Origin: Anolis carolinensis
Lineage: Eukaryota
NCBI RefSeq assembly: GCF_035594765.1
Contig: NC_085842.1
Span: 19,754,782-19,818,781 of the forward strand
DNA: 64,000 nucleotides
Direction: 5' to 3'
Every line of letters begins with the position of its first letter. Position 1 is the first letter of the stretch. The notes beneath the pieces are model-generated. The model made no database searches and was not told where the DNA came from. It saw only the letters and a program-made list of their open reading frames with translations. Below, piece after piece: positions 12,411 through 47,138 of this stretch. A program made the position numbers and the translations under genes.

Positions 12411-12494
12411 CCTCTGGAATCCTTGTAACAGACTATATGCTTAGTCATGCTGTGAAATTATTTTAATGCAATATATATCTCTTTATACCAACAG

Positions 12495-13912
12495 AAGAGG
12501 AGAATATGACAAAGGAAATGGAAGAAGGCCCCCAGCAGGAAAGTCCCAAACAAGCAGGAATGGTCCTGGAAATCACCAAAAAAGAGACTTGCTTGTGCCA
12601 TGACCAGAAAGAAGCTCCTCAGACCCAAGAGCGCTTCCTATGTGAGCAAGAAACCCATTCAGATGAGATCCCTGTTGATGTTCCTCATACGAATGACCTC
12701 AGCGTAACCACAATGGACCAGGTTATTCAGAAACATGGGAACGATGAGACAAGCTCTCAGTGTGGACAGAGTTTCAGTGTGAGCCCACCTCCGAAAACCA
12801 ACCCCGGAGAGAAGCGCTACAAATGCTTGTACTGTGGGAAGGGCTTTGCGGTGAGATCAGGCCTCACTGCTCACGAGAGAACCCACACGGGTGAGAAGCC
12901 GTACACGTGTTCAGACTGCGGGAAGAGCTTTAGCGTGAGCTCCAGCCTGAAGGCCCACCGGAGGACCCACACCGGAGAGAAGCCGCACGAGTGTTCGCAC
13001 TGTGGGAAGCGGTTCTCCGTGAGCTCGACCCTCAAGAAGCACTACCGGACGCACACGGGCGAGAGGCCCTACGAGTGCTTGGTCTGCGGGGTGAACTTCC
13101 GCCAGATCGGCAGCCTGAAAGCTCACCAAAAAATCCACACAGGAGAAAAATCCTGTGAGTGCTCTGTCTGCGGGCTGGGTTTTAGCGAGCTCTCCGTCCT
13201 TTTCTCCCATTATAGGACCCACACGGGGGAAAAACCCTACAAGTGCTCCGAGTGCGGCAAGAGCTTCTACCAGAAACAGGGGCTTGCTCTGCACCTGAAG
13301 ATGCACTTCGGGGAGCGGCCGTATAAATGCTCCGAGTGCGGGAAAAGCTTCAGCGTGAGCTCACGCCTTAAGAAGCACCAGTTGATCCACACAGGAGAGA
13401 GACCCTTCCAGTGTCAGCAGTGCGGGAAAAGCTTTTGCTCGAGCACGGATCTCATCATCCACGAGAGAGCCCACGCCGGGGACAAGCCCTATCAGTGCTC
13501 TTTTTGTGGGAAAAGGTTCTGCCGTACCTCGGAGGTGGTCAGCCACGAGAGAATCCACACAGGGGAGAAACCCTACAAATGCCTGGAGTGTGGGAAGAGC
13601 TTCAGCGTCAGCTCGCGGCTGAGTACACACAAGAGAGTTCACACAGGGGAGCGGCCGTTCAAATGCTCGCAGTGTGGAAGGACTTTCACCTACAAGGCCC
13701 ACCTGGTTGCCCACGAGAGGATCCACACGGGAGAGAGGCCGTACACATGCTCAGTGTGCGGGAAGACCTTTCGGGTGCGCGACTGCCTCATGGTACATGA
13801 GAGAATCCACACCGGGGAGAAGCCTTTCAAATGCTTAGACTGTGGCAAAAGCTTCCGGAACAGCTCTTCTCTGGTCCAGCACCAAAGAATACACGCAGAA
13901 CGGAACAAATAA
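12495..13912 (+). CDS. Gene B terminal exon: 13 tandem C2H2 zinc fingers
   Basis: ORF 12506-13912 has 13 CxxC-x12-HxxxH repeats with TGE(K/R)P-type linkers. Phase-1 acceptor ACAG|AA at 12494/12495. Confidence 0.95.
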
Positions 13913-21855: not shown

Positions 21856-22548
21856 ATGTCTTCGAAAGAGGAGGAGGAAGAGGTGGCTATACCCTTGGCT
21901 CCCCATGAATATTTTCCGGTCAAGAAGACAGTGGACCAACAACACCCCACAAGTCCCTTGGGACATGGAGATGCCTCGGAGGGCATGGAAATGATGAGCA
22001 ACCATGTGGTGAAAAAGGAAGACATGGTGACGTTGGCAACATCTTGTCCAGAACCAAATCGCCCACATCTCCTGGACACTCCGCATTCGGACGATATATA
22101 CCTGACGCCCGCTGAGAAGGCCATCATTAGCCATCCGGGGAAATGGATATCTCGTCTCCTCCCAGGCCTCAAGGAGGAAGGGCAGAGGCTATTTGAGGAG
22201 CGGGAGGCAGGGGACTACGGGAAGGTGAAGGCAGCTATTTTGAAGGTGGACGCCATCGGCACTGAGGTCCAGCGGCAGCACTTCCGGCTGTTTCAATATA
22301 AGGAGGCCGACGGGCCCCGCGAAGCCTGCAGCCGGCTCTGGTTCCTTTGCCATCGGTGGTTGAAGCCCGAGCGGCACACCAAGGAGCAGATCCTGGAGCT
22401 GTTGATCCTGGAGCAGTTCTTGGCCATCCTTCCTCCAGAGATCCAGAATTGGGTCAAAGACGGCTGCCCGGAGACCTGTGCCCAAGCGGTGACTTTGGCG
22501 GAGGAGTTTCTGCTGAAGCCACGAGAGGCGGAGAGGCCAACACAGCAG
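21856..22548 (+). CDS. Gene C exon: SCAN domain with eroded ESCAN N-lobe
   Basis: ORF 21835-22674 contains [10 protein letters not shown]...[10 protein letters not shown]...[64 protein letters not shown] at 21856. Phase-0 donor CAG|GTGATC after 22548. Confidence 0.9.
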
Positions 22549-22620
22549 GTGATCCTGGTGATTCTGTCATCCTATATCCTGTGGAGATACAAGAGTCTGG
22601 AAACTTTCATGGTGCCCAAC

Positions 22621-23192
22621 CCAGATCTGAAGTCCAAAACACCTGAAGGACTAAAGGTTGGACACCAGATCTGAAATCCAAAACATCTGAAGGACTAAAG
22701 GTTGGACACCAGATCTGAAGTCCAAAACATCTGAAGGACTAAAGGTTGGACACCAGATCTGAAGTCCAAAACATCTGAAGGACTAAAGGTTGGACACCAG
22801 ATCTGAAGTCCAAAACATCTGAAGGACTAAAGGTTGGACACCAGATCTGAAGTCCAAAACACCTGAAGGACTAAAGGTTGGACACCAGATCTGAAGTCCA
22901 AAACACCTGAAGGACTAAAGATTGGACACCAGATCTGAAGTCCAAAACACCTGAAGGACTAAAGGTTGGACACCAGATCTGAAGTCCAAAACACCTGAAG
23001 GACTAAAGGTTGGACACCAGATCTGAAGTCCAAAACATCTGAAGGACTAAAGGTTGGACACCAGATCTGAAGTCCAAAACACCTGAAGGACTAAAGGTTG
23101 GATACCAGATCTGAAGTCCAAAACATCTGAAGGACTAAAGGTTGGACACCAGATCTGAAGTCCAAAACACCTGAAGGACTAAAGGCTGGACA
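22621..23192 (+). repeat. 44-bp minisatellite, 13 copies
   Basis: Unit CCAGATCTGAAGTCCAAAACA(C/T)CTGAAGGACTAAAGGTTGGACA, period 44. Confidence 0.95.
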
Positions 23193-23983
23193 CCACTAGT
23201 TAAACCAGGCATGGCAAACCTCAGCCCTCCCTCCAGGTGTTTTGGACTTCGGCATTTCCTAGATCCTCCAGCACAACTCAAGTGTTTCTGCCACAAATCA
23301 ATAACGCTTGCTATTAAATGGGAATGTGCTTGTCCATGAGTCTTGAAATCCCATAACCTTCTTCTGTACATCAACTAATTTTTAACTCTCTTTTGAACTT
23401 CTTTTTATTAAATTGTTTTGGTATCACGTGCATCGTCTGGTATTAGAGTGGTTGAGCTAGGTCACATTGAGTCTATGGTGGCAACAGATATTCAGGATGT
23501 TGTCGAAGGCTTTCATGGCTGGAATCACTGGGTTGCTGTGAGTTTTTTGGGCCAAATGGTCATGGTCCAGTATCATTTTCTCCTGATGTTTCACCTGCAT
23601 CTGTGACTAGCATCTTCAGAGGTTTCTGAAAATGCCAGCCACAGATGCAGGCAGAACATCGGGAGAGGATGCTACTCAAACATGGCCTTACAGGACAAAA
23701 AACTCACAGCAACCTAGTTATTCAAGAGTTGTGCCCTGAGTCCCCACGGGTGAAAAAGGCGGGATAGAAATGACGTAAATAAATAATAAATAAATTGTGA
23801 TAACTTTGGTGTCTTCATGATGGGTCAAGTTGAGGTCCCTTCTTTTGATGACATAGCAGTAGATCAAGGAGGGTCTCCCACGTTTGTTGGCAGTGGTGGA
23901 GCCGGTGGAGGACACACCACTGCCCAGCCTCCATCCCAGACCATTCACGGTTCCTGAGCTTAACTTTCTCTTCTCTTTTTCAG

Positions 23984-24107
23984 GTGCCAGGATCTCTTGA
24001 AGAGCCAATCGGGAGCTCTCCTGTGGTGGACAAAGCGCCGTTGGAAGCCAACCAAGAAGTGGACCAGGAGGTCAAGCAAGAGACCGTTATGGATGGCATC
24101 TCCATGG
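23984..24107 (+). CDS. Gene C middle exon (124 nt, phase 0 to 1; degenerate KRAB-A-like)
   Basis: Strong acceptor TTCTCTTTTTCAG|GTG and donor ATGG|GTAAGG. Frame VPGSLEEPIGSSPVVDKAPLEANQEVDQEVKQETVMDGISM. Confidence 0.85.
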
Positions 24108-24849
24108 GTAAGGTGGAATGTTTCTTTTAACATTAACGGAAATGTGCCAGTTGATATCTGAAAAGCCAGAAATGTGCCAGTTGATACCTATGAAGTTTGA
24201 GTTTGGCCAGTGCTTTGGCAAGTAATGTTTCAGTTGGTGCTGTCCTCAGGGATCAAAAGTCTGAAAGCCAATCCTTAATGTGGAATGCCTTATTAGGGGA
24301 GCTGAATATGTTTAGTTTCCAGAAATGACAAGAAGTGACATGATAGCTATCTTTAGATGTCTGAAGGCACGTCATATGGACTTTGTAAAAGTTTGATTAT
24401 TGCTATTCTAGAGGAGGCATGGGCAAACTCGGGCCCTCCAGGTGTGTTGGACTTCAACCCCCTACCGGCTGTTAGGAATTGTGGGAGTTGAAGTTCAAGA
24501 CATCTGGAGGGCCCGAGTTTGCCCTCCCTGACATAGGGGCACAGTTCAGTATATTGAATTACCTCTCCATTGATCTGAAAGCCAAAAGCTATTTTAGTCT
24601 GATATTTTAATTCAATTCATGGCTTGGATGTCCAAATGGTTTGTATATTATGGATTTTAACTTTAATTCATTGTTATGTTTATTGTTTATTTTTTGACTC
24701 GATGTGGTCTATGTTAATTTCATTTGGTATGTTTTTTTGTGTATCTTTGTATTAATTAGATTATAGTTGCTTATTTTATGTTGTTTGCATTTCTGCTATT
24801 TTATAGGCTGCCTTGAGTCTCTCTGTGGAAATGGGGCAGGATATAAAGA

Positions 24850-24850
<1 letters not shown>

Positions 24851-24905
<55 letters not shown>
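24851..24905. repeat. (ATT)n microsatellite; similar tracts near 10095, 27878, 28373, 52063, 52254, 53935 and 56344
   Basis: Direct reading. Confidence 0.95.
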
Positions 24906-24906
<1 letters not shown>

Positions 24907-24995
24907 AAGCTGGCTTTATCATTCCCATTTATAACTGTCCTGGATTATTTTTTTAAAAATTGTCGAACAAGGTGTCAATATATTAAATATATGTA

Positions 24996-25330
24996 CAGTG
25001 TTCTCTCACTTATTGCTGGGGTTAAGTTCCAGGACCACCCGCAATAAGTGAAAACCCACAAAGTAGGGACACTATATTTATTTTAATATTTATACATTAT
25101 TTTAGTAGTTATACACTATTTTAAGTCTTTATCAACCAATTGTGTGTTGATAAATCGCCTCCTTCTCCTCCCGTTGCCGCTTGGGCTCCCTTTCTCTCCC
25201 TTCGGCTTCTCCTTCCTCCCTTCCTTAGGCTGTAAATTGCAATTTTTTATGATTTATAATAGTCTTTTAGAGTTTATTGTGAAACAGCGAATCCGCGAAA
25301 AGTGAACCGCGAAGTAGTGAGGGAACACTG
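24996..25330. mobile_element. Tigger-like MITE
   Basis: TIRs CAGTGTTCTCTCACT and AGTGAGGGAACACTG, with TA flanks. Confidence 0.75.
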
Positions 25331-26136
25331 TATTTTCTCACCCCTGAGGGCTAGAAACCTGATTTTACAACAACAAAAATTATAATTGGGAAACACAATC
25401 TCATACATGTATACTAAAAATGTCCCTATAGATTCATTGGGGTTTTATTTAAAATTGTGATTTCACTTTCTTTGCTCCTTATATGCTTTCTTGGAACTGG
25501 TTTTGATTTAGCAGCCTTCTAATTCTTCTCTGTCAAGTATATATATTTTTCTAATATTTTGTACATGCTGTACATTTTGTACATGCTCTTTTCAAAAAAG
25601 AAAATATGGGTTGCTGTGAGTTTTCCAGGCTATATGGCCACATTTATTTATTTATTTCCAACATTTATACCCCGCCCTTCTCACCCGCTGGGACTCAGGG
25701 CGGCTTACAACAGTTGGCAACATTTAATGCCAAGAACATAATAATAAAACAAAAACAGTACATATCACCAATTAAACTATAAAAATATATGATTAAAGTA
25801 CATTATAACCTTTTAAAACATATGTAAATTAGATCCATTTGTCTAAAAACCTCATGTTTCAGCCTTCAATCAGACCATGTCGACATTATCATATTACTCG
25901 TTAAAAGCTTGCGCAAACAACCATGTTTTCATGGCCTTTCTGAAACCCAGAAGGGTTGGGGCTTGTCGGATATTTGTGGGGAGGGTGTTCCACAGCCGGG
26001 GAGCCACCACCAAGAAGGTCCTGTCCCTCGTTCCCACCAGCATTCTCTCCTGATGTTTCATCCATGTCAGGCATCCTCAGGGGTTGTGAGGTTTGTTGGA
26101 AACTACGGTAAGCAAGTGGGGTCTATATATCTGTAG

Positions 26137-27630
<1,494 letters not shown>

Positions 27631-32845: not shown

Positions 32846-34092
32846 TGACTTAGAAATGGAGATGAGGACTAACCCCCAGAGTCAGACATGACTAGACTTA
32901 ATGTCAGGGGGAAACCTTTACTTCTTTATTATATACTAGCTTGGGGACCCGGTGGTTCCCGGGTTATTAGAAGAAGGCATTGTTTGTTTTGGGATGTTAG
33001 GTAATATCAGTTAGGTTTGGTCCAGATCCGTCATTGGCTAGGTTCAGGGCTCTCTGGATAAGGGTGAATTACAACTCGCAGATGCAAGATCAATTACCCC
33101 CAAAGCAGGCCTGTATGCAGTTGGCCATGTTGGGTCTGTGTGCCAGGTTTGGTCAAGATTTGATGTCTGCTGGGTTCAGTGTTCTCTGGATAAGGGTGAA
33201 CTATAACTCCCAAAATGAAGGTTCATTCCCATTAACTCCTGCAGTATGTTCAGTTGGTGATGGAGCTTCTCTGTGCCAAGTTTGGTCCCAGTCCATTGTC
33301 GGTGTGTGTGTGTGTGTGTGTGTGGGGGGGGGGGGGGTCACAGTATCAGTGAAGGTACTGCAAGTCCCATCATCCCATCATGACAAGTGTGGTCCAGATC
33401 CATTGTTGGTTGGGTTCACAGTGCTCTCTACATGTAGGTCAAGTACATGGTGTGAATCATGGTGAATTATTCCCCAAACTTCTTGTTCAGTTGGTGATTA
33501 ATTCCTCCGTTAACCGTGTACCATAGGAAAGGATAGGAAAGGGTTAAGGGAGAGGCAGTGGGCAGGGTCATGCAAATTAAGGTACCCTGGGATGTCCATT
33601 CTGGAGAACATTTAGGAGGAAGTTGTCCCTGCATGAAAGCCTTCACTTGGACGGTGGGCAGGATGATGTTTGTGGAGGACACTGGCAGGGTTTGGCCACA
33701 TTTTCATAGTGCTCACTATAACCTGCATTGTTTCTTGGAGGGAGGGCCATTGGTGTCTCCTGCTCAGTGGGAGCCATAGCGGTTTATGGAGGTGGCAGTT
33801 TGTCTGTGTAAGTAGACACCTCTGCCACATTCACACATACACATTTTTCATTTTTATTATGTGTGTAGATGTCTTAAATACAGCCCACAATTTCTCAATC
33901 TAATCGAGATAGCAACCGCCACCAAACATGTATGGAGATGACGCTGGAATGCCAATAAAGAAAATCCAGAGTGATCATTTCTACTTTCAAAAAGAGGATA
34001 ACAATTTGAATACTCCTAAACCACAAATGAAACAAAACAAATGCACAAATAAACACAGAACTGCAATGTCAGCATAATCCCAAGATTCAGGG

Positions 34093-34835
34093 TTATAGTC
34101 CACTATCGGCAGGTGTTTCCGCTGCGTGGGTTTTTTTGTGCAGCATAAGAAGAGAGATCTGACAGAAGCTTTCCTCACATTCGGGGCAGGAGTATGTTTT
34201 CCGGTGGAGGTGGGACCTCTGGTGCCGAGTGAGGTACGACTTGCAGACAAATCCCTTGCCACAGTCTGAACACCGGAAGGGCCTCTCGCCGGAGTGGATG
34301 CGCCTGTGGTGGAGGAACCCAGAGCGGGAGCTGAACCCGTTCCCGCAGACTGAGCAGCTGTACGGCTTTTCCCCGGTGTGGATCCTCTGGTGACGGGCCA
34401 GGTCCGACATCCACACAAAGCTTTTCTCGCAAGCAGAACAGTCGTAGAATGTGTTCCCACTGTGGGCCTTTTGGTGCGCAGTCAGGTGCTTCTTCTGCTC
34501 GAAGCTTTCACCACACTCGGCACACAGGTACCTCATCTCTCCATTGCTGTTTTTAACCTTCTTGAAAAGCCCTAATTTTGTCAAGGGTTTACCAACCGCA
34601 CCACCAGTCTTCAGGTGAGGCCCTGGTTCTGTCTCAGGAGAGATCTTGTCTCTGGGTTTATCCCCATTGGTTCTGAATCCATCTCCCGGCTTCCTTTTTG
34701 GGTTGTGAAGGTTCTCGGGTGCTTTGGCCACATCCTGTCCATCTGAAAGCTCCTCTCTCACTCTGCATGGGTCGCATTCTTCAGGGATACCTTGGCAATT
34801 GGGGGTCACTCTGTTTTCACTTGCCTGCCCCAAAT
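34093..34835 (-). CDS. ZF exon D: 5 C2H2 fingers, no own SCAN or middle exon found
   Basis: ORF 34093-34833 has five fingers (CAEC, CSAC, CSVC, CSDC, CPEC). Long polypyrimidine phase-1 acceptor TTTTTTATTCCATTAG|AT. Confidence 0.88.
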
Positions 34836-37800
34836 CTAATGGAATAAAAAAGAGAAAAAAGATCCAGAGAGTGCCATTTGTTCCCTCTCTTTTGGGTGGA
34901 CTGCAGTCCTCTTACATTCCACCTAGACAGAAAAATGGCCAGAGACTGTGGAAACTTTTATTTGCAGTGCTTTGTATCTGTAATATGCCTTGAGTCCCAA
35001 TTTGTGGGGAAAGTGGGGTAGAGATAGAGAGATTGCAGTCCAGTGCACAATATCGAGGAAGCCAAATGTTCCCCACTTTTTTATATCTTTGTAATTATCA
35101 GTTCAAAGCAGTTGGTGCCATCAGGACAAGTAGCATTCCTATCAGTGTGTCACATACCACATTTCCAGGGGTGGCTTCATAAATTGAACCTAGCATCCAC
35201 AAGTGTCCTGTTTCATCTTGAACACCCCTTAATTTAAGGGCTGGAAATCTTGTCCCATATGCTCCAAATCCTGTATTTTTTTGAAATTATTTTTATTAAT
35301 TATTTGGCACAAACAGTCTAATATACAATCAGAAAGTATACATTCAAAAATAATGAAATGTGTCTAGATCTGTATTCAAATCACAACTTGCACAAAATAA
35401 ATATAACATTCTTTGCTGTTCACTCTAATTCAAAACATTTTCAAAGCAAAATCCACCAGTTACTTCTCTCCCCTTTTTATCATATGTAGAAATCCTAATT
35501 TTTTTAAAAAAAGAGATTGCTTGCAAGGGAAATCCTGTATTTTGATCAATGTGGGTATGAACCAGATATGGTCACGCCAGATGGACCCTTGAGCCTTTGC
35601 TATGGAGTACAAATGGTCTAACGTTATATACCAGAGGTTGGAGTTGGGCAGCCACTCTTCCTCCTCTGGGCCAACTCTGAACTCACAACAGTAAAGATCT
35701 CACTTTCCAATAGCTCTAGATTGCCATCCCAATATTGTCCTGGTCTTGAGACACGAGATTTCACAGAAACAGAGATCATATGAGAGGTTCTTACATTGGT
35801 GGACCTTATGGAGGCCCACCTCACATGTCTCCTGCCAATCTTGAGTTGGCAACTGAGTGGGGAGGATGTTGTTAAGGTAAGTCCAGAGTATTATGGTTTC
35901 TCTATCCCCTTCCCCCTTTTGCATTGCCTCACACATCTCAACTGGTTGTCTTAATTCTCCCTCACCAGGGCTGAGATTTATGAAGACAAGTTTGAAAGTG
36001 TTACTTCTCCATTACAGCTCCTGAAGTTCCCAAACATCATAGTTAATAACCTCACACTCAAGGCTGGGGAATTCTGGAGACCCCAATCTTGAAAAGGTAC
36101 ATTTCTGGCATAAAATTAAGTGTATAATCACAGGTAGCTTACAAGAAAAATCCAGTATTTGGTAGATACTGGAAACTCACCTTAGCAAGACAAGATGTAG
36201 CTACAGTCAGCCCTCCACATTTGCTGCGGTTAGAGGTGTAGGACCTCTGTGGAAGGAGAAAATCCAAGAAATAGGGATATGCTTGCCTATGAAAATATCT
36301 CTCCAGAAACTAGACCCTCCAGAACAACCCTCTTGTTCATCTCTACCAAAGAATCATGATGGAGTAGGGACGCGAGTCGGATGTTGGATGGTAAAACATC
36401 AAACATCCAGGCGTCCCCTGGGCAATGTCCTTGCAGACAGCCAATTCTCTCACACCAGAAGCGACTTGCAGTTTCTCAAGTCACTCCTGACATGAAAAAA
36501 ATCCCCCCAAAAAACATGTATCACGATGAGAATCAACTTGTTCAATCCCTCTCACTAATAGCCCCTTTTATCAGCACAGCTGTAGAAGAGGCCGGTTTCG
36601 ACTGCTCTCACCTGCAAAGAAAGGTCATAGTTTCCTCTTAAGTATGGTTAAGATAAATTAAGATTAATCTTAAGTAAAGTTCATTGAAATATGCTAGTGC
36701 CATATTTCATGGTTTGGTATTGTCCAGTTTCAAGCAAAGCAGCATTAAGAACAATTGGTTCAGTTCTGATGACACGTCACACTGCAGTTAAGCAGAAAGG
36801 GGTGGGAAAAAAGCTTCCAGATGCCTTGGGCATGAACAGGAATACAGAGAAAGGAACAGCAAAAACCATAGCTCACTAACACTTGTTCCCAGTGCATTAA
36901 AATGAGAAGAGGGGAACATATAGCCCTGTGAGCTATATATTTTGCTAACAGGGCTACATATTTTGCCTCCACTTACTCATCTTTCCTTCTCCCTGTTCAT
37001 CAAAATCATGACCATGGTCTTAAGAAACTGGCAATCCCTGCACCTACCAGTATTAGTCTATTTATATATTTTGTTATGCTAGTTTGAGAACTAGACTACA
37101 ACTTTAGAGATTGGAATTCCCATCCTCCTTTGGCCAAGAGAGTCCCAGGGTAATTTTAAGATCACATACTCTCAGCCTCAGACAAAGGCAAAGAAATCTT
37201 GCCAAGGAAATTCCGCGATAGCTTCTCCTTAGGGTCACCATAAGTTGGAAACAACTTGAAGGCACACAACAACGGGTCTGAGCCAGGCCGAAGTTTTCCT
37301 CACTCAAAAAGACCTGCTCTCTTAAACATACAAGTAGGTTAAGGTAAAGGTTTTCCTCTGACATTAAGTCTAGTTGTGTCCAACTCTGGAGGCTGGTGCT
37401 CATCTCCATTTCTAAGCCAAAGAGCCAGTGTTGTCCATAGTCATGTGGCTGGCATGACTGCTGTTCCCTTTCTGCCGCAGCAGTACCTATTGGTCTACTC
37501 ACATTTGCATGTTTTTGAACTGCTAGGTTGGCAGAAGCTGGGGCTAACAGCGGGAGCTCATCCTGCTCCCCAGATTTGAACTGCTAACCTTTTGGTCAGC
37601 AAGTTTATCACCTCAGAGGTTTAACCTTCTGCGCTATCGGGAGCCCCATTAAAAAAAATACAAGAAACATATTAAATAAATTATTGGGCTGTGGAAAATG
37701 CTACTTCTTCTTCACCCTAAGACAGGCTTCACTGTCTTTAGCAACAAGAATGAGTTCTCTGCCTATAGCAGAGGTGGGAATCATTCATGACTCCTAGCAG

Positions 37801-38113
37801 CCCCAGCAGTCAGCTATGAAGAATGCTTGGAGATGCAGTCCAATTTGAAGCATGTGAGCTACAATCTCTAGCAGCATGTATGTATGCATCCAATGGTTCC
37901 CCCCAAAAAATCAAAAACAGCCATGGCAGGAATGGAGGACATTCTTTATTGTGTGAGTGACTGAATGCTCCTGCATTTTACAGTGCCTTAAAACATGACA
38001 TTTCTGACTAAAGGGCATCCGTGGGCCAGAATGATGGGTGATACTGATTTTCTACAAGAAGCAGCTCCTTCTCCTCCTCCTCCACCACCACCATCGTCCA
38101 AGCCTCCATAGGG

Positions 38114-38787
38114 CTAGCGTGCCGTGTGGATTCTTTGGTGTCTGTTAAGGCACGTGTTGCGAGAGAACCTCTTCCCGCACACGGGACACTCGTGCGGCCT
38201 CTCCCCCGTATGGATTCTGCGGTGAGTGTTAAGGTTCGCTTTCTGGCTGAAGCTTTTCCCGCAGCGCAGGCACTCGTAGGGCCTCTCCCCAGTGTGGATT
38301 CTCTGGTGAGTATTAAGGTAGGAGTTGCGAGAGAAGCGCTTCCCGCAAGTGGGGCACTTGTGGGGCCTCTCACTTTCACACCTTTTATGGTGCCCAAGGA
38401 GCTGGAATTTCTGACTGAATCGTTTTCCACAGTCCAAGCATTTAAAGGGCTTTTCTCCTGAGTAGACGCTCTCATGTTTAATGAGGCTCGGGCTCTGACC
38501 AAACTTTTTCCTAAGCACACCGTAGATACTCGGTCTCTTACCAGGGTACATCCTCCGCTGGAACACATCTTCCTTCAAGTCCTGCAACGGTCCCCCCAAC
38601 GGGACAGATAGAGCTACTTCTTGCCCTGAGCTGAGCTCCAGGTGACTCCCTAGAATGGCTCTCTGCTCACAAAACTGGGGGGGATTCTCTGCTGATCGCC
38701 AAACGGTTGGCCCGTGGGGTGCCAATTGCTCAGAAGCTTCTGGTGGAAATTCTTCTCCTTCCGCTATAGTCATCCACCCTTTAGCAC
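38114..38787 (-). CDS. Gene E terminal exon: 3 canonical C2H2 fingers, 1 C2HC-type finger, 1 decayed finger
   Basis: From ORF 38114-38947. Phase-1 acceptor after a T-rich tract, TTCCCTCCAG|GT. Minus-strand AATAAA at 37945-37950. Confidence 0.9.
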
Positions 38788-39402
38788 CTGGAGGGAAAAA
38801 AAAGACAAAAATCACTTGTGGAGGGATGACTCTACACATAATGCAGCTACCTAGACAGGAAACAAATAGTGGAATGAAAACATCATCTATACACATAAAA
38901 AAGTGAAAATACTGTATGTATGTTTTGTGTGTGGCTGGGGTGTCCACTTACACGGACAAGCTCCTGCCTCCACATACAGCTATAGCTCCCACTGCTCAGG
39001 AAACACCAAAGCCCCTCCTTCCAATGACATTGCAGGTTATAGCGAGTACCGTGAACATCCCCAAGAGCCCTGCCAATGTCCTTCGTAAACATCATACTGC
39101 TCACCACACAAGTGAAGACTTTCATATGGAGACAATTGCACCCTAGTTTTTGTGTTTTTCCCCCACCACAGGTATCCCAGTGTCCTCTCTCTCTCCATTG
39201 GTGTGCCATTTGAATGACCCCACCCACTGCCTCTCCCATAACCCTTTCCTATTCTTTTTTATGGCACACAGCAAATTGAGGAATTGATCAGCAACTGAAC
39301 ATACTAGAGAAGTTTGGAAAATCTGAAGTTATGAGATCCCTGCCAGGGCCAAACTGGATAGTCTCAAGGGTCATTCTCAAATCTAATAGCTTATATTCTC
39401 AC

Positions 39403-39535
39403 CCATCAAGATGGCCTCGCCACTGCCCTCCTCTTGCTTGGTCTCCTTGGGTAGCTGCCTGTAACCGGTGGGAGCAGATGGAGCAGCTTCAGGGTCACAG
39501 AATCTCAAAGCCACTTCCTCAAAGGCTGGTGTGAT
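39403..39535 (-). CDS. Gene E middle exon (133 nt, phase 0 to 1): recognisable degenerate KRAB-A
   Basis: TTTTTCCAG|ATC acceptor, ATGG|GTGAGA donor. Translates ITPAFEEVALRFCDPEAAPSAPTGYRQLPKETKQEEGSGEAILM. Confidence 0.85.
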
Positions 39536-39579: not shown

Positions 39580-40870
39580 CTAGGACTCATTCAGGTGGTC
39601 TCGGGGACCAAGCTCTGTATGTGAATAGGGTTTGGAGCTTATTCAGGTGACATTAGGGACCAAGCTCTGTATGTGAACAGGATTTGGGGTTTATCCAAGA
39701 GGTCTTAGTGACTGAGCTCTGTATATGAACAGCATTTAGAGTTTATTCAGGAGGTCGTAGTGACTGAGTGCTATATGTTAAAAGAGTTTGGGACTTATTT
39801 AGTGTTGGAAATAGCAACCTCCCAAGTCTTTCACTATTTATTTGTTAATGTATATATTTGCTAACCTGTATTCTATGTGTATGTTGATTTGCCAGTTTGA
39901 CTGTACCTCTTTGGTATGGGAGGGGTTATAGACATGTGATTGTACTTAGCATGTTCAGACTCAAGACTCCATTTTATATTCAGTGTGATTATAGACTTCA
40001 ATGTGTTAAGTCTGCTTTACACCTCAGTGGAGGTGGATGAATGAGTTTGCATCAAACCTCAGTGGTGGTGGATGCATGTTGCTGTTTTGGACTTCAATAG
40101 AGAAGTATGACTTATGGACTTCAGTGAGTACAACTATATCTAAAGAGTATGGACTATTGATTAAGAATGATATCCTGTGTACTCAACACAGAAAGAGAAC
40201 TACATCCTATCTATAACTAAACTTCAATAAGAAATGTCCCTGTATGGTGAATTAATACAAGATGTTTAAGAGTAAACAAGATATGTTATTTTCAAAAGAA
40301 GACTTTGGTTTTTTAATTTTTGAGTGCTTATTTTGAACTAAGAAATTGGATAATTAGAATTGCAACTGCAACTTCAAAGAAACAACCATCCTCTGCTAAC
40401 CAAATATATTTTTGTCGTGGCATGTCTTTGTCCTTGGCAGTTCAAAGACATGGTTCTTTAGCTTAATAGCTGAGTTACCTGTGTGCCATTACATGAATGC
40501 TCATGAATATCACTTGTTCAAAGGGTTGACTTCTAACAAGGTCATGCTTTTCTTGACTAGTGGTTTTGAAAAGGTGGTCTCCACATGTTCATGGAGATTC
40601 ACATTTGCCAAACGGATATGACATCATTTTTCAATAATGTTACGATTGCCATTTATTTCCAAAGGGATAGGTGTCCAGAGACTGGGTGCAGTTATTTCCA
40701 ATATTTAGGCAGTCTTAGGGACCAAGCCCTGTACCTGAGTGACATTTAAGGTTTATTCAGCTGTTCTTATAGACCAAACTCTGTATGTGAATTGGGTTTG
40801 GGATATATCCAGGTAGTCTTAGGGACTGAGCTCTGGTTTTGAACAGGTTTTGGGGTTCATTCAACTTGTC
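39580..40870. repeat. Diverged 52-bp tandem array split by an LTR
   Basis: GAC(C/T)(A/G)AGCTCTGTATGTGAA-type units at 39606, 39658, 39710, 39762 and 40720, 40772, 40824. Confidence 0.8.
39803..40703. mobile_element. Solo LTR-like element, 901 bp
   Basis: TGTTGGAAATA...TATTTCCAATA inverted ends. 5-bp TSD TTTAG at 39798-39802 and 40704-40708. Confidence 0.75.
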
Positions 40871-40935: not shown

Positions 40936-41676
40936 CTGAGTTTTCTGTCGCTGTACCTCTCTCTGGACCTGCAGGAAGTTCTCAGCCAAGGCCACTGCCT
41001 GGGCGCAGGTCTCGGGGCCTCGTTCCCTGACCCAGCTCTGGATCTCGGGAGGCAAGACGGTCAGGAACTGCTCCAGGATCAGCAGCTCCAAGATCTGCTC
41101 TTTCGTGTGCTTCTCCACCTTCAGCCACCGGCGGCAAAGATCCTGGAGTCGACCGTAAGCCCCTCTGGGACCCTCGGCCTCCTGGTAACAGAAGTGCCTG
41201 AAATGCTGGCGCCTTTTCTCCCTGTTGAGGGCAGCCCCCCGCAAGATGGCCACCTTTACTCTCCCATAATCCTTTCTGTCTCGAGCTTCCAGCCGGTTGA
41301 AAGCCTGTTGTGCTTCTCCGCGGAGGGCCGGAAGGAGCCGGGTGACCCACTCCTCCCTGGGCCACCGGCAGGCCTCAGCCACTTGCTCGAAGGAGGCCAG
41401 GAAGGCCTTGGCGTCATCCCATGGGGCAGGCTCCTCCGGCAACGGTGGGAGCCCCCAGCCTGAGCAAGGAGACTCCACTTCCTTCAGGAACTCTTGCCAC
41501 TGGACCTCCCAGCGCTGAATGAGACCTTCATCAGCCTCCTCTTTAATCTGCGGCACCGGCATCTTATGGAGGAATTCACGGATGCAGCTCCTCTCGATGG
41601 CATGTGGAGACTTTCTGGCCCCTTCCAATCCTTCTACTGGTTTGGGGTCGACTTGGCGTGTCTCCTCCATTTTCAT
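40936..41676 (-). CDS. Gene E exon: extended SCAN (ESCAN)
   Basis: From ORF 40879-41838. MKMEE start at 41676, with an alternative ATG at 41697. [33 protein letters not shown] plus the SCAN core. Phase-0 donor CAG|GTGGGA. Confidence 0.92.
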
Positions 41677-44554
41677 CCCTGGTGGACTTCTCTGCATGGA
41701 AGGGTTCACGGACAAGATGGGGGCACAAGCAGAGAATTCGCGTTTTGGAAGACCAGAATCAAAGGCCCTGAGAGAGAAAGGATTGGAGACACATGAGAAA
41801 ATTGACCGCAGCTTCAGGAACTCTGTTTGTAACTTCACAATGCTACACTTCTATTTGAACTTACTCATATGGAATCTGTAAGAAAGGGAAGATGTAGGGA
41901 ACATGAAATCTCTAGGTTCTCCAGCATAACTGGAGGAGGATGACTACAGAATCAGACTGGGGGACCTAGCAATTCTAGAGGGAACATTTTTAGCAAATCT
42001 GTGAATAATCAAATCCACAAATCAAAACCTCAAATGTGCATCTGTATGAGGTATATTTACAGTAGAGTCTCACTTCTCCAAGACTCGCTTATGCAAGCTT
42101 CTGGATTATCCAAGACAATTTTGTAGTCAATATTTTCAATATATCATAATATTTTGGTGCTAAATTCATAAATATAGTAATTACAACATAACATTACTGT
42201 GTACTGAACTACTTTTTCTGTCAAATTTGTTGTATAACATGATGTCTTGGTGCTCAATTTGTAAAATCATAACCTAATTTGATGTTTAATAGGGTTTTCC
42301 TTAATCCCTCCTTATTATCCAAGATATTCACTTATCCAAGGTTCTGCCCATTTAGCTTGGATAAGTGAGAGACTACTCTATATATCCCACTGTAAGGTAC
42401 TGCAGAACCACTTCAGCAACATTAGTCCCCAGTGCGCAATGGGTTAAACCCTTGTGCCGGCAGTCGAATTCGGGGAGTAGGATAAGCTCCTGTCTGTCAG
42501 CTCCAGCTTTCCATGCAGGGACATGAGAGAAGCCTCCCACAAGGATGGTAAAACATCAAACATGTGGGCATCCCCTAGGCAATGTCCTTGCAGGCGGCCA
42601 ACTCTCTCACACCAGAAGCGTCTTGCAGGTTCTCAAGTTGCTCCTGACAAGAAAAAAGGCCACTCAAAAGAGAATCTTGGAAATACAGTAGAGTCTTGCT
42701 TATCCAACATAAACGAGCCAGCAGAACATTGGATAAGCGAAAATGTTGGATAATAAGGAGGGATCATGGATAATCTTGTTAAACTTCAAATTACGTTATG
42801 GTTTAACAAATTAAGCACCAAAACATCATGTTTTACAACAAAATGACAGAAAAAAGCAATTCAATAAATGGTAACTTATGTAGTAATTACTATATTTACT
42901 AATTTAGCACCAAAATATCGCAATGTATTGAAAACATTGGCTACAAAACATTTGACTACTGTAAGGCAGATTACGTTGGATAAGCGAGATTCTACTGTAG
43001 TTTTATTATTGCCTAGGTTTCTACAGCTAATGGAGCTTTTGTGCAAAAGTTCTAGTTTTCTGCCCCCTGAATTTCAACCCCCCCTTCCCTTGTAGCCATG
43101 GCAACCCAGGTCAAAGCAACTCCCACCAGTCCTCCTCCCAAAAATTCTTATCAGTCCTTTCTCATGAGAAGCTTTCCAAATGTCCAGGGGTATCTTTCTC
43201 TCCTCCTCAGCCCTTGACCTGTCATGGAGGAATTATGGTGGATTTTCAGAACATCAGAATGCCGCCATGACACTCACTCTTTAACCACAAAGACTTGATT
43301 GTGCCATCTGTATATATAAAAGTCAAAATATGAATGTCTGTCTGTCTGTCCGTCTGTACCACAAAGGCTGCTGTTAGGTGAAGTGGCCCTCTGTGAAGCC
43401 ATTGGGTAAGAAAGGTGGCCTATGTATGAGGGCAAGGGAGAGGGGAAGGAAAATGAAATGGAAAGGAAGAAAGGGAGCGGGGAGAGAGAAAAAAAAGAAA
43501 AACAGACATAGGAAAGGGAAAAGGTATGAGGGGAGGGAAAGAGAAAGCAGCAACCCCTTTGATACTTAGGAAACACCAGGTATATATGCTAGTTTTATAC
43601 GCGGATCCATAGTAGCGCAATGGGTTAAACCCTTAGAATTGAAGAAATGCAGTACTACCATTCTCCACTTGAAGTACAGTGCCACTATCAGAAAGAAAAG
43701 GCTTATCTATATATAGGAAAAGCACCTGCACCCCACTTTTAGAGATGTTTATGGGGGGTGTTTCTTAGAATTCAAGAAATAAGGACATTCTAACCAGCTT
43801 AGTATGGATATGGAGATAATGAGAGGTATAGATATAGGTATATATAGCGAGAGAGAGAGAGAGAAGTGGATGAGGTTTTATAGCTCCAGTCCCTCCAACC
43901 ACTGGGTCATGCCCAATTTGGCCTCTGTTTCCCTCTTACCTAGAACCACCCCAAATTAATCTCCAGTTTTGCTAATGTAAGTACACATTATGTAGAGAAA
44001 TTAAATTATTTATTACATGCCCACCTTGATTCTCCATTCTGGTTATAGATTTGAGGCAGATTAAGTTTTTTCTAGCATCCGTAAGAAGCAACAGTAAAAG
44101 ACACACTGACGGTTTTCCTACCATCTTGCTTAAAAGAAAACAACCTTATGTTGAGTTACCAATATATCTGTTGATCACCAAAGATGGGTGACCAACCATT
44201 TCTGGATGATGTAACAAAAATTAATTAAACACAAGTCCTGATTAATATCTAAAAGGAGACAGGGTTCGATTCAAGCCCTTCAAGTTCAAGCGGTTGGTTG
44301 GTTTGAGTAGGAAAGAGTTGTGAAATAACATTGAAAACCACTGCATCACGACATAGACTCTGCTAAGAATGCCATAGCAGAGGGTACCTCTATACCAGGC
44401 ATGGGCAAACTTGGGCCCTCGGGTGTTTTGGACTTCAACTCCCACAATTCCTAACAGCCTACTGGCTCTACACTGTAGAATTAACCCAGTTTGGCATCAC
44501 TTTTAAATACCAAGGAATAATGAGAGTTGTAGCTTGAAGCCCAGCAGAAAAAGC

Positions 44555-45005
44555 TAAAGGCCTTGGGAAACGACAACACCCAAGACTCGATAGCATTTGC
44601 CACAATGGTTAAAAGTGGGATCAAAGTGGGTTAATTCTGCAGTGCAGATGCCTCATGGGCCTCTTAGAAGACGGTTTGACAGCATTTAACGCCCTTCCTG
44701 GTCATAAAGGCCTTAAGAAACGACAACACCCAAGACTCGATAGCACTGCACCAAGGTGGTTAAAAGCAGAATCAAAGTGGGTTAATTCTGCAGTGCAGAT
44801 ACCCCCTGGGCCTCTTAGAAGTCGGTTTGACACCAATCAACGCCCTTCCTGGTCACAAGGGCCTTGAGAAACGACAACACCCATGACTCGATAGTACTGA
44901 GCCAAGGTGTTTAAAAACGGGATCAAGTGGGTTAATTCTGCAGTGCAGACGCCCCCGGCGCCTCTTAGAAGTCGGCTTGAGAGCAATTAATGGTCTTCCT
45001 GGTCA
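44555..45005. repeat. About 150-bp tandem repeat, 3 copies
   Basis: AAACGACAACACCC at about 44568, 44718 and 44869. Confidence 0.85.
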
Positions 45006-45099
45006 ACCTTGGGGGGCTGTCTTTCCTTCCCCGCAAGAAGCGCTTCTCATAACTTCCCTCCTTCCTTTCTGCCCCAATTTAGGAGTCCCATTTCCAAGG

Positions 45100-45260
45100 A
45101 CTCACCTGAAACCCTTCCAAAGATATCGTACTTCCTGGATTACACAACTTCCGGAAGACGGCAGCACGGCGGAAGCCAGTCTGCCTCTGCAGAGTAGCGC
45201 GACTTCCGCTTCGCCACTCTAGCCAGGGCCTCCCAGGAACTTTGTGGTCTTAACCCTGTA
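45100..45260 (-). promoter_or_regulatory. CpG-rich promoter / non-coding exon 1 of gene E
   Basis: Clustered ETS-type motifs (ACTTCCGGAAG, GCGGAAG, ACTTCCGC). Minus-strand donor CAG|GTGAGT at 45106/45105. Confidence 0.65.
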
Positions 45261-47138
45261 GACGCCAGTGACATATTGCAGCAGGGCCAGGATTGCATAG
45301 GATGTTGCAGGCAGGCCTGGGCCAACTTGGGCCCTCCAGGTGTTTTGGGCTCCAACTCCCACAATTCCTAACAGCCGGTAGGCTGTTAGGAATTGTGGGA
45401 GTTGGAGTCCAAAACACCTGGAGGGCCCAAGTTGGCCCAGGCCTGCAGTGGAATCATTGGTTACCTAATCCAACTCCATGCTAAAGTACAGACCCTGTAT
45501 TATTTATTTTTATTATTAAGCATTTCAGGATTACATCTTTTTTTTCCTTTTCAAAAATATACAAAGCCACTTTCAAGTCTGCAAAGTTTTAAAACTGCAC
45601 CGTCGCACGACTCCCCAAAATGACTTCTAGAGTTCCCTGCATCCTCCTGGGTTGAAAAGAACTTCTTCAAAAAAGCATATTTTGGGTGCTCCAAATGACC
45701 TAAATACATAGATACAGGTGTAATGGGGATGCCAGGGCTTGAACCTGCAACCTCTGGCTTGCCACTGAATCCAAGAGACGGAAGACGTCCATAGAACGGG
45801 GACCGAAATGGTAAAAGGCATGAAAGCCAAGCCCTATGAGGAGCGGCTTAAGGAGCTGGGTGTGTTGAGCTTGGAGAAAAGGCGGCTGGCGGGACACAAC
45901 AGTAAAGGTAAAGGTTTCCCCTGACATTAAGTCCAGTTGTGTCCAACTCTGGGGATTGGTGCTCATCTCCATTTCTAAGCCAAAGAGCCGGCGTTGTCCA
46001 TAGACACCTCCAAGGTCATGTGGCCATTGGCATGACTGCATGAAGCACCATTACCTTCCCACTGGAGCAGTACCTATTGATCTACTCACATTTGCATGTT
46101 TTTGAACTGCTAGTTTGGCAGAAGCTGGGGCTAACAGCAGGAGCTCACCCCCGCTCCCTTGTTTTGAACCACCAACCTTTCAGTCAGCAAGTTCAGCAGC
46201 TCAGAGGTTTAACTTCCTGCGCCACTGAGGGTAGGCAACCTTTAAAACAGTGGTTCCCAACCGTTGGGCCTTCAAGTGTTTTGAACATCAACTCCTAGAA
46301 ATCCCAGCCAGCTTACCAGCTGTTAGGAACTGTGGGAGCTGAAGTCCAAAAAACCTGGAGGCCCCAAGGTTGGGAACCACTGCTATAAAAGGATGCCATA
46401 CTGAGCTCATTTTCTGCTGCTCCAGAGGTAGGACGTGGAGCAATGGATTCAAACTACAGGAAATTCCACTGAAACGCTGTGAAGAATATCCTGAAGTAAA
46501 CACTGTTCAGCAGCGAAATACACCACTGCCTGGGAATGTAGTGTAATGGAGTCTTCTCTAGAAAGTTTTTCGACAAAGGCTGGATGGCCACCTGTCAGGA
46601 ATGCTTTGATTGTGTCTTCCTGCATTGCAGAATGGGGTCTTCTGATTCGATCTCAACAGTTTTAATATTGGGTTGCTGTGCCTTTTCCAGGCTGTATGGC
46701 CATGTCCCAGCAGCATTCTCTCCTGATGTTTCACCTGCATCCAGCTGGAATGATTGTAAAACATGGGACTGTAGACAATATCCTCTTAACTAATGTGTTT
46801 TTTTGTTGATGAATCTAAATAATGTTTTCAGTGGGTTGCTGTGAGTTTTTTGGGCTGTATGTTGGGTTTCGAGGTTGGGGGGCCTGTAGTTTTGTTGTTT
46901 TGTGGGTCGCCGTGATGCCATCACTCCTTTATATATATAGATATAGATGTCTTAATTGTGACGTTTATCCTGCTTTCAAATCTATATAAATAAAAGAGTA
47001 ATGGAATCCCAGCGACCAACAGAACTACAGGCCCCCCAGCCTTGAGATTTGACAACACAACCCATCGTCCATGCCTCTAGGTTGATACAACAAAAAGAAG
47101 AGAAAAATAAAGTCCTAATTAGAAGGAAAGGAATAATA

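Follow-up and report, generated by a model that had tools for sequence, protein, structure and literature searches.

We analyzed a 64,000-nucleotide stretch of the Anolis carolinensis genome (1.85 Gb), positions 19754782-19818781 of contig NC_085842.1, which we call the window; all exon coordinates are window positions unless stated otherwise. On its minus strand lies an ESCAN zinc-finger gene that very probably is one gene with two unrelated finger arrays, the likely source of two proteins through a choice at a 5′ splice site (donor) inside the exon that encodes the first array. We refer to this exon as exon E, to the downstream exon with the second array as exon D, and to the whole as the two-tail gene. 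The exon anatomy, the donor, the reading frame and, in the public gene models of related lizards, both types of protein can be read directly; A. carolinensis itself presumably makes the D form as well.

Exon anatomy of the two-tail gene

The exons and signals of the gene, in the order of transcription, are as follows (nt, nucleotides; aa, amino acids).

45106 to 45230, minus strand: putative promoter and non-coding first exon, with a donor-like CAG/GTGAG at 45106/45105
40936 to 41767, minus strand: ESCAN exon, both forms; ATG at 41697, SCAN domain and capsid-like N-terminal extension, phase-0 donor
39403 to 39535, minus strand: middle exon of 133 nt, both forms; degenerate KRAB-A-like, phase-1 donor
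38114 to 38787, minus strand: exon E, whole; 674 nt, open to its stop in the frame of the phase-1 donor
38542 to 38787, minus strand: shared 5′ part of exon E; 246 nt, 82 codons, phase 1 kept; predicted internal exon in the D form
38536 to 38544, minus strand: internal 5′ splice site CTG/GTAAGA, cut at 38542/38541, inside the linker of a decayed zinc finger
38114 to 38541, minus strand: E-specific extension; decayed finger, four fingers and stop, within the predicted 3,706-nt intron of the D form
37945 to 37950, minus strand: AATAAA, putatively used by the E form and read from the sequence alone; for the D form this polyadenylation signal would be intronic
34093 to 34835, minus strand: exon D; 743 nt, phase-1 acceptor, spacer of about 100 aa, five C2H2 fingers, stop
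33853 to 33858, minus strand: candidate AATAAA of the D form, in repeat-like sequence

An earlier note on this DNA had described exon D as intact with a strong phase-1 acceptor, and so we found it: the exon is a 247-codon open reading frame (ORF) that runs to its stop in the frame set by the phase-1 donor of the middle exon, and 15-16 of 17 positions in both its acceptor and that of exon E are pyrimidines. Exon E has the phase-1 acceptor and the AATAAA of its own that had been ascribed to it, and the donor at 39403 does fit both acceptors in frame, the middle exon ending in phase 1 and both D and E being open. The recognition helices, reported as unrelated, were read in the same way by us: QKKH, WMSD, SRSG, CKSY and QISL in D and QKFQ, RNSY, QKAN and RNTC in E. 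Because the helices differ, the two arrays would be expected to bind different DNA. The predicted products are an E form of 522 aa with four fingers and a D form of 627 aa with five, identical over their first 380 residues. The first finger of E (38357-38440, minus strand) ends in H-x3-C rather than H-x3-H, a signature present in 15 of 15 E-type proteins.

The interval between D and E contains no match to profiles that recovered 27 SCAN and 26 middle exons in 464 kb, and no tblastn match from 78 squamate proteins. Its ratio of observed to expected CpG (CpG o/e) is 0.16, which bears out the earlier statement that neither a SCAN exon, a middle exon nor a CpG promoter separates D from E. Exon D is single-copy; elsewhere in the genome only short finger matches of 65-94% were found. 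Around the putative first exon (44900-45400) the GC fraction is 0.54 and the CpG o/e 0.49, and directly downstream of it three tandem copies of a 151-bp unit (86% matches) occupy 44555-45005. A second set of tandem repeats, with a 52-bp unit, adjoins the acceptor of the middle exon (39589-39799).

A donor inside exon E

The feature that the earlier note missed is a strong, in-frame donor within exon E. The residue at which D-type and E-type proteins of related lizards diverge maps to CTG/GTAAGA, cut between 38542 and 38541, 246 nt past the acceptor of E. Since the site lies 246 nt after that acceptor, phase 1 is kept, and the donor is in frame with the acceptor of D. It matches the donor consensus at seven of nine positions, compared to five of nine for the donor at 39403. 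The junction relevant to the D form is thus predicted to be 38542-to-34835, not 39403-to-34835.

Among the E-type rows, the residue at the donor is glycine in seven of eight and serine in one, followed by Lys-Arg in all eight, a pattern compatible with a kept GT. The 28 residues past the donor have the appearance of a decayed finger, beginning with a linker-like H-T-G-K-R and ending with the next H-S-G-E-K-P (Podarcis, Elgaria); on this reading exon E is seemingly an ordinary last exon in which a dead linker serves as donor. We also asked how frequent such sites are in finger ORFs. A G/GTRAG in codon phase 1 upstream of the first finger is present in just 4 of 31, E included, which speaks against such donors being common in finger spacers, and of the four sites only that of E has a finger-linker-like context.

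D and E tails in related lizards

Proteins were gathered by searches with the start of D, with the head and with the Elgaria E region, and by cluster look-ups; all D and E joins in relatives are those of automated public gene models. When the first 135 residues of D were searched against longer proteins, 2 of 82 candidates matched, one of them a generic finger protein. The other, the sole true relative found to carry the D spacer in that search, is a 633-aa Sceloporus protein in which the head (86% identical) and the middle exon are followed by the first 82 codons of E and then by D. Altogether we obtained 13 head-bearing D-type proteins from nine species (Sceloporus, five geckos, two Podarcis and Zootoca), plus one D-only fragment, and 15 E-type proteins, also from nine species (two Anolis, Elgaria, Rhineura, three Podarcis, Lacerta and Zootoca). 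The 5′ part of E is kept in all 13 head-bearing D-type proteins, a Gekko model lacking about 20 residues from its middle, and the tails diverge at one and the same residue in every tabulated row (nine D, eight E).

Three species have both types with identical starts: Podarcis lilfordi (371 aa), P. muralis (392 aa) and Zootoca (371 aa). The Zootoca pair is labelled isoform X1/X2, and the two P. lilfordi accessions are consecutive. The proposal in the earlier note, one head with two interchangeable tails, therefore stands as far as the shared head and the two arrays are concerned, given the identical lacertid heads; its mutually exclusive last exons, both spliced from 39403, are represented by none of the 13 D-type proteins. 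Likewise, the arrangement that it suggested looking for in other squamates does recur, with both tails on one head in orthologs, but the join runs through the internal donor of exon E.

In a tree of the shared part (17 rows, with ten paralogs as outgroup and other isoform duplicates omitted), the 17 heads form one clade (100/99) in the order of the species. Tail type is unclustered on this tree, with five label changes, a number as low in 183 of 500 shuffles. The tree and the identical lacertid pairs speak against two paralogous genes of which the D copy lost its head in Anolis. The D join is common to geckos, iguanians and lacertids, and E-type proteins occur in iguanians, an anguimorph and lacertoids, a distribution by which the two-tail state would date back at least to the split of those groups.

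The Anolis D fingers are 79% identical to those of Sceloporus and 66-70% to those of lacertids and geckos. Sceloporus D has 65-68% identity with gecko D, no more than Anolis D (66-70% over the fingers), and Anolis-specific decay is therefore not apparent. Upstream of its first in-frame Met, the D spacer is 51% identical to that of Sceloporus over 97 columns. The E helices hardly vary across all eight tabulated E-type rows, which span Anolis to lacertids.

Other searches returned less. A query with Elgaria E residues 298-452 added the Zootoca E protein, and its 163 candidates included no E-type protein from a gecko, skink or snake; word-based searches of this kind easily miss such proteins. The first 153 aa of D, searched against 1.8 billion representatives, drew mostly poly-finger proteins, with a D or E signature in 0 of 150 rows, and neither of two versions of D alone had an exact counterpart in the protein collection.

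Predicted choice between splicing and polyadenylation

By its sequence, exon E appears to be a composite terminal exon, its internal donor being in frame with a downstream exon and an AATAAA lying inside the corresponding intron. The classic example of this class is the choice between secreted and membrane IgM. In such exons the donor goes unrecognised and the sequence up to an intronic cleavage site is retained, and the type makes up 61.6% of 2,675 human isoforms, according to the accessible part of PMC5928244. If the donor at 38542 were ignored, cleavage after the AATAAA at 37945-37950 would give the 522-aa E form; if it were used, removal of the 3,706-nt intron would take out the E fingers and join D, giving the predicted 627-aa D form. 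From membership in this class, splicing at the internal donor likely competes with polyadenylation at 37945-37950. As in the composite terminal exons described there, exon E would be kept from the unused donor to the intronic signal; unlike the usual members, the stretch retained in the lizard gene is a complete, strongly conserved four-finger array and not a short truncating tail.

The arrangement may have arisen in two steps. Exon E would at first have been an ordinary last exon that gained a donor from the linker of a decayed finger; a finger exon further downstream, itself without a head, would have been captured before geckos and other squamates split. A broader reading is a squamate-wide regulated switch, built from dead linker to donor to captured array, in which E/E, D/D and E/D SCAN dimers would provide three DNA specificities and lineages would tune or drop one tail. 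We regard this extension as speculative and rather unlikely. Of the two tails, only D was seen in geckos and only E in Anolis models. If true, such a switch would be a vertebrate counterpart of the Drosophila genes fruitless and lola, swapping arrays without gene duplication.

Alternative explanations

Several observations weigh against one gene making both proteins. Both forms are known from just 3 of 15 species, and an E-type protein was found in none of the five geckos. No Anolis D-type protein was among the 82 candidates, and the four members of the cluster of the annotated A. carolinensis protein P0003 are all E-type. Every D join comes from automated gene models, in which read support is not visible, and one P. 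muralis model (P0095) gives D as a separate 222-aa protein. Finally, a contig of run X3 (34590-34869) bridges the acceptor of D unspliced, with 34 letters on the intron side at a depth of 3.3; it is the sole bridging record and could be DNA or pre-mRNA.

This contig comes from a comparison of 33300-38110 with contigs of 4 of 24 listed runs, whose RNA nature is a guess; over this range the D junction is visible from the side of D alone. The junction was not observed in these A. carolinensis contigs; the tables of joints and loose ends were dominated by repeats. In three of the four runs the first 90-130 nt of D lack cover. Contigs end near both AATAAA sites, at 37933 (X3) and 33835 (X1), positions that agree with the signals but do not establish 3′ ends. 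The nine listed differences in exon D of run X6, four synonymous and five non-synonymous where the expected synonymous share is 0.28, are uninformative and lend no support.

The best surviving alternative, which we nevertheless consider improbable, is that squamates do have the two-tail gene but that in A. carolinensis the D form is lost or negligible and D is an intact relic. The absence of a D-type model for either Anolis species, both having E-type models only, and the unspliced state of the sole contig across the acceptor of D would fit. However, the donor, the acceptor, the frame and the 247-codon ORF are all intact, and the D fingers do not show accelerated change against geckos.

It is more improbable still that D stands alone as a headless gene, with a promoter and non-coding exons of its own somewhere in the interval, the joined models being read-through or annotation artefacts. 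Such a gene could account for the stand-alone P0095 and for the contigs that lie on unique sequence at 35430-36225 in three of four runs, and fused models do occur in the cluster (P0086, 1952 aa). Against it, the junction residue is identical across nine species, the D spacer is conserved in Sceloporus ahead of the first in-frame Met, the interval has the low CpG o/e given above, and another P. muralis model, P0091, joins D to the head. Intron RNA, read-through, DNA or an antisense exon might each explain the contig cover at 35430-36225; a plus-strand donor-like site lies there at 35876.

Least probable of all is the version in which the transcript ends in either E or D, each spliced from 39403 as a mutually exclusive last exon, as this join is in frame but the 5′ part of E is missing from 0 of 13 head-bearing D-type proteins; it may occur as a minor skipping product.

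The ESCAN head and the middle exon

With a SCAN domain in its head (Pfam PF02023, E-value 2e-39) and C-terminal tandem C2H2 arrays, the two-tail gene belongs with the ESCAN/SCAN zinc-finger genes. The first 120 aa of the head are 100% identical to P0003. A structure model of the head is helical and confident over residues ~95-254, and its best fold matches are SCAN structures. In the same exon as SCAN, the head appears to carry a capsid-like N-terminal extension: the structure model matched the capsids of Arc, MLV and PNMA2 with weak scores over 154-213 columns (E-values 0.003-0.03, template-modelling score ~0.3), and a sequence search of the PDB gave no match to the extension.

The middle exon is apparently a degenerate KRAB-A. 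An intact KRAB-A box is absent, with no Pfam match; aligned to three KRAB-A boxes by hhalign, the exon scored 77% (E-value 2e-5), compared to an E-value of 0.76 for a reversed control.

Two models suggest further alternative splice-site use. An A. sagrei model (P0081) lacks the last seven residues of the ESCAN exon (40936-40957), as from another donor, and an Elgaria model (P0083) has 11 additional residues ahead of exon E, as from another acceptor.

Relation to known systems

In vertebrates, a KRAB or SCAN finger gene is normally taken to have a single head, a single array and a single specificity, and the diversification of such genes is generally attributed to duplication. ZFP64 has alternative finger-bearing ends. 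Among Drosophila BTB-zinc-finger genes, broad and tramtrack are of the same kind as fruitless and lola. The latter two combine a common dimerising N-terminal domain with alternative C-terminal finger arrays (PMC3969260, accessible part), and in these respects the lizard gene is like them. It is not a member of their group: its head is a capsid-derived ESCAN and not BTB, it is a vertebrate gene with two tails, and its first array does not occupy a last exon of its own but extends a shared exon, from which an internal donor would remove it. The lizard gene also resembles human PEG3/ZIM2, for which sharing has been reported in humans. Unlike that pair, it shares a whole coding head of 380 aa in frame, and its D join is kept from geckos to iguanians.

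The founding ESCAN paper is reportedly that of Emerson and Thomas from 2011. The origin of ESCAN and its expansion in squamates are treated in the accessible parts of PMC3406341, PMC4592553 and bioRxiv 10.1101/2025.03.03.638093. The two-tail gene shares with the squamate ESCAN/SCAN genes described there an ESCAN exon, a degenerate KRAB-like exon, a finger exon and a place in a tandem cluster; unlike its neighbours, it is the only one shown with a second array wired through an internal donor. The accessible text of the bioRxiv report does not contain "isoform" or "splic", and in a literature search that was thin on subscription journals no report on either this locus or reptilian SCAN genes with two arrays turned up. 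The two-tail arrangement is already latent in the isoform models of the databases, and it accounts for their disagreement on the size of the gene, ~520 aa in some lizards and ~630 aa in others.

The retention of two complete arrays, strongly conserved across lizard lineages, points to isoform choice as a second route of diversification. The gene also offers a compact, testable case in which splicing versus intronic polyadenylation would set the targets of a transcription factor, and it cautions against taking every headless finger exon of a squamate cluster for a pseudogene.

The surrounding cluster

The two-tail gene lies within a tandem cluster. Our profile scan of 464 kb identified 27 full SCAN exons, 26 of them with a middle exon behind, and 31 finger ORFs, five of which lack a head of their own. 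The usual finger exon follows 26 of the 27 SCAN heads, that of the two-tail gene among them.

A second headless, intact exon, with 13 fingers, lies on the plus strand of the window (12467-13912); the stretch that separates it from the previous genes has neither a SCAN nor a middle exon on that strand. It is similar to the array at 26137-27630, and its best protein matches are only 61-69% identical. An in-frame Met directly follows its putative acceptor, and it may be a finger-only gene.

Outside the window, a headless 15-finger ORF at contig positions 19587205-19588965 (plus strand; L009) is another two-tail candidate, 8 kb behind a complete SCAN-middle-finger gene on the same strand; the spacer of the finger exon upstream of it has no G/GTRAG site. 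Contig positions 19608252-19609995 and 19653355-19656134 (both plus strand) hold two short headless finger fragments, together with a SCAN exon and its middle exon, behind which 16 kb pass to the next SCAN without a finger exon. Within the window, the plus-strand gene at 22273-27630 is the sole SCAN gene of the 27 for which the profiles detected no middle exon, and the Lacerta model P0086 suggests that it has a diverged one.

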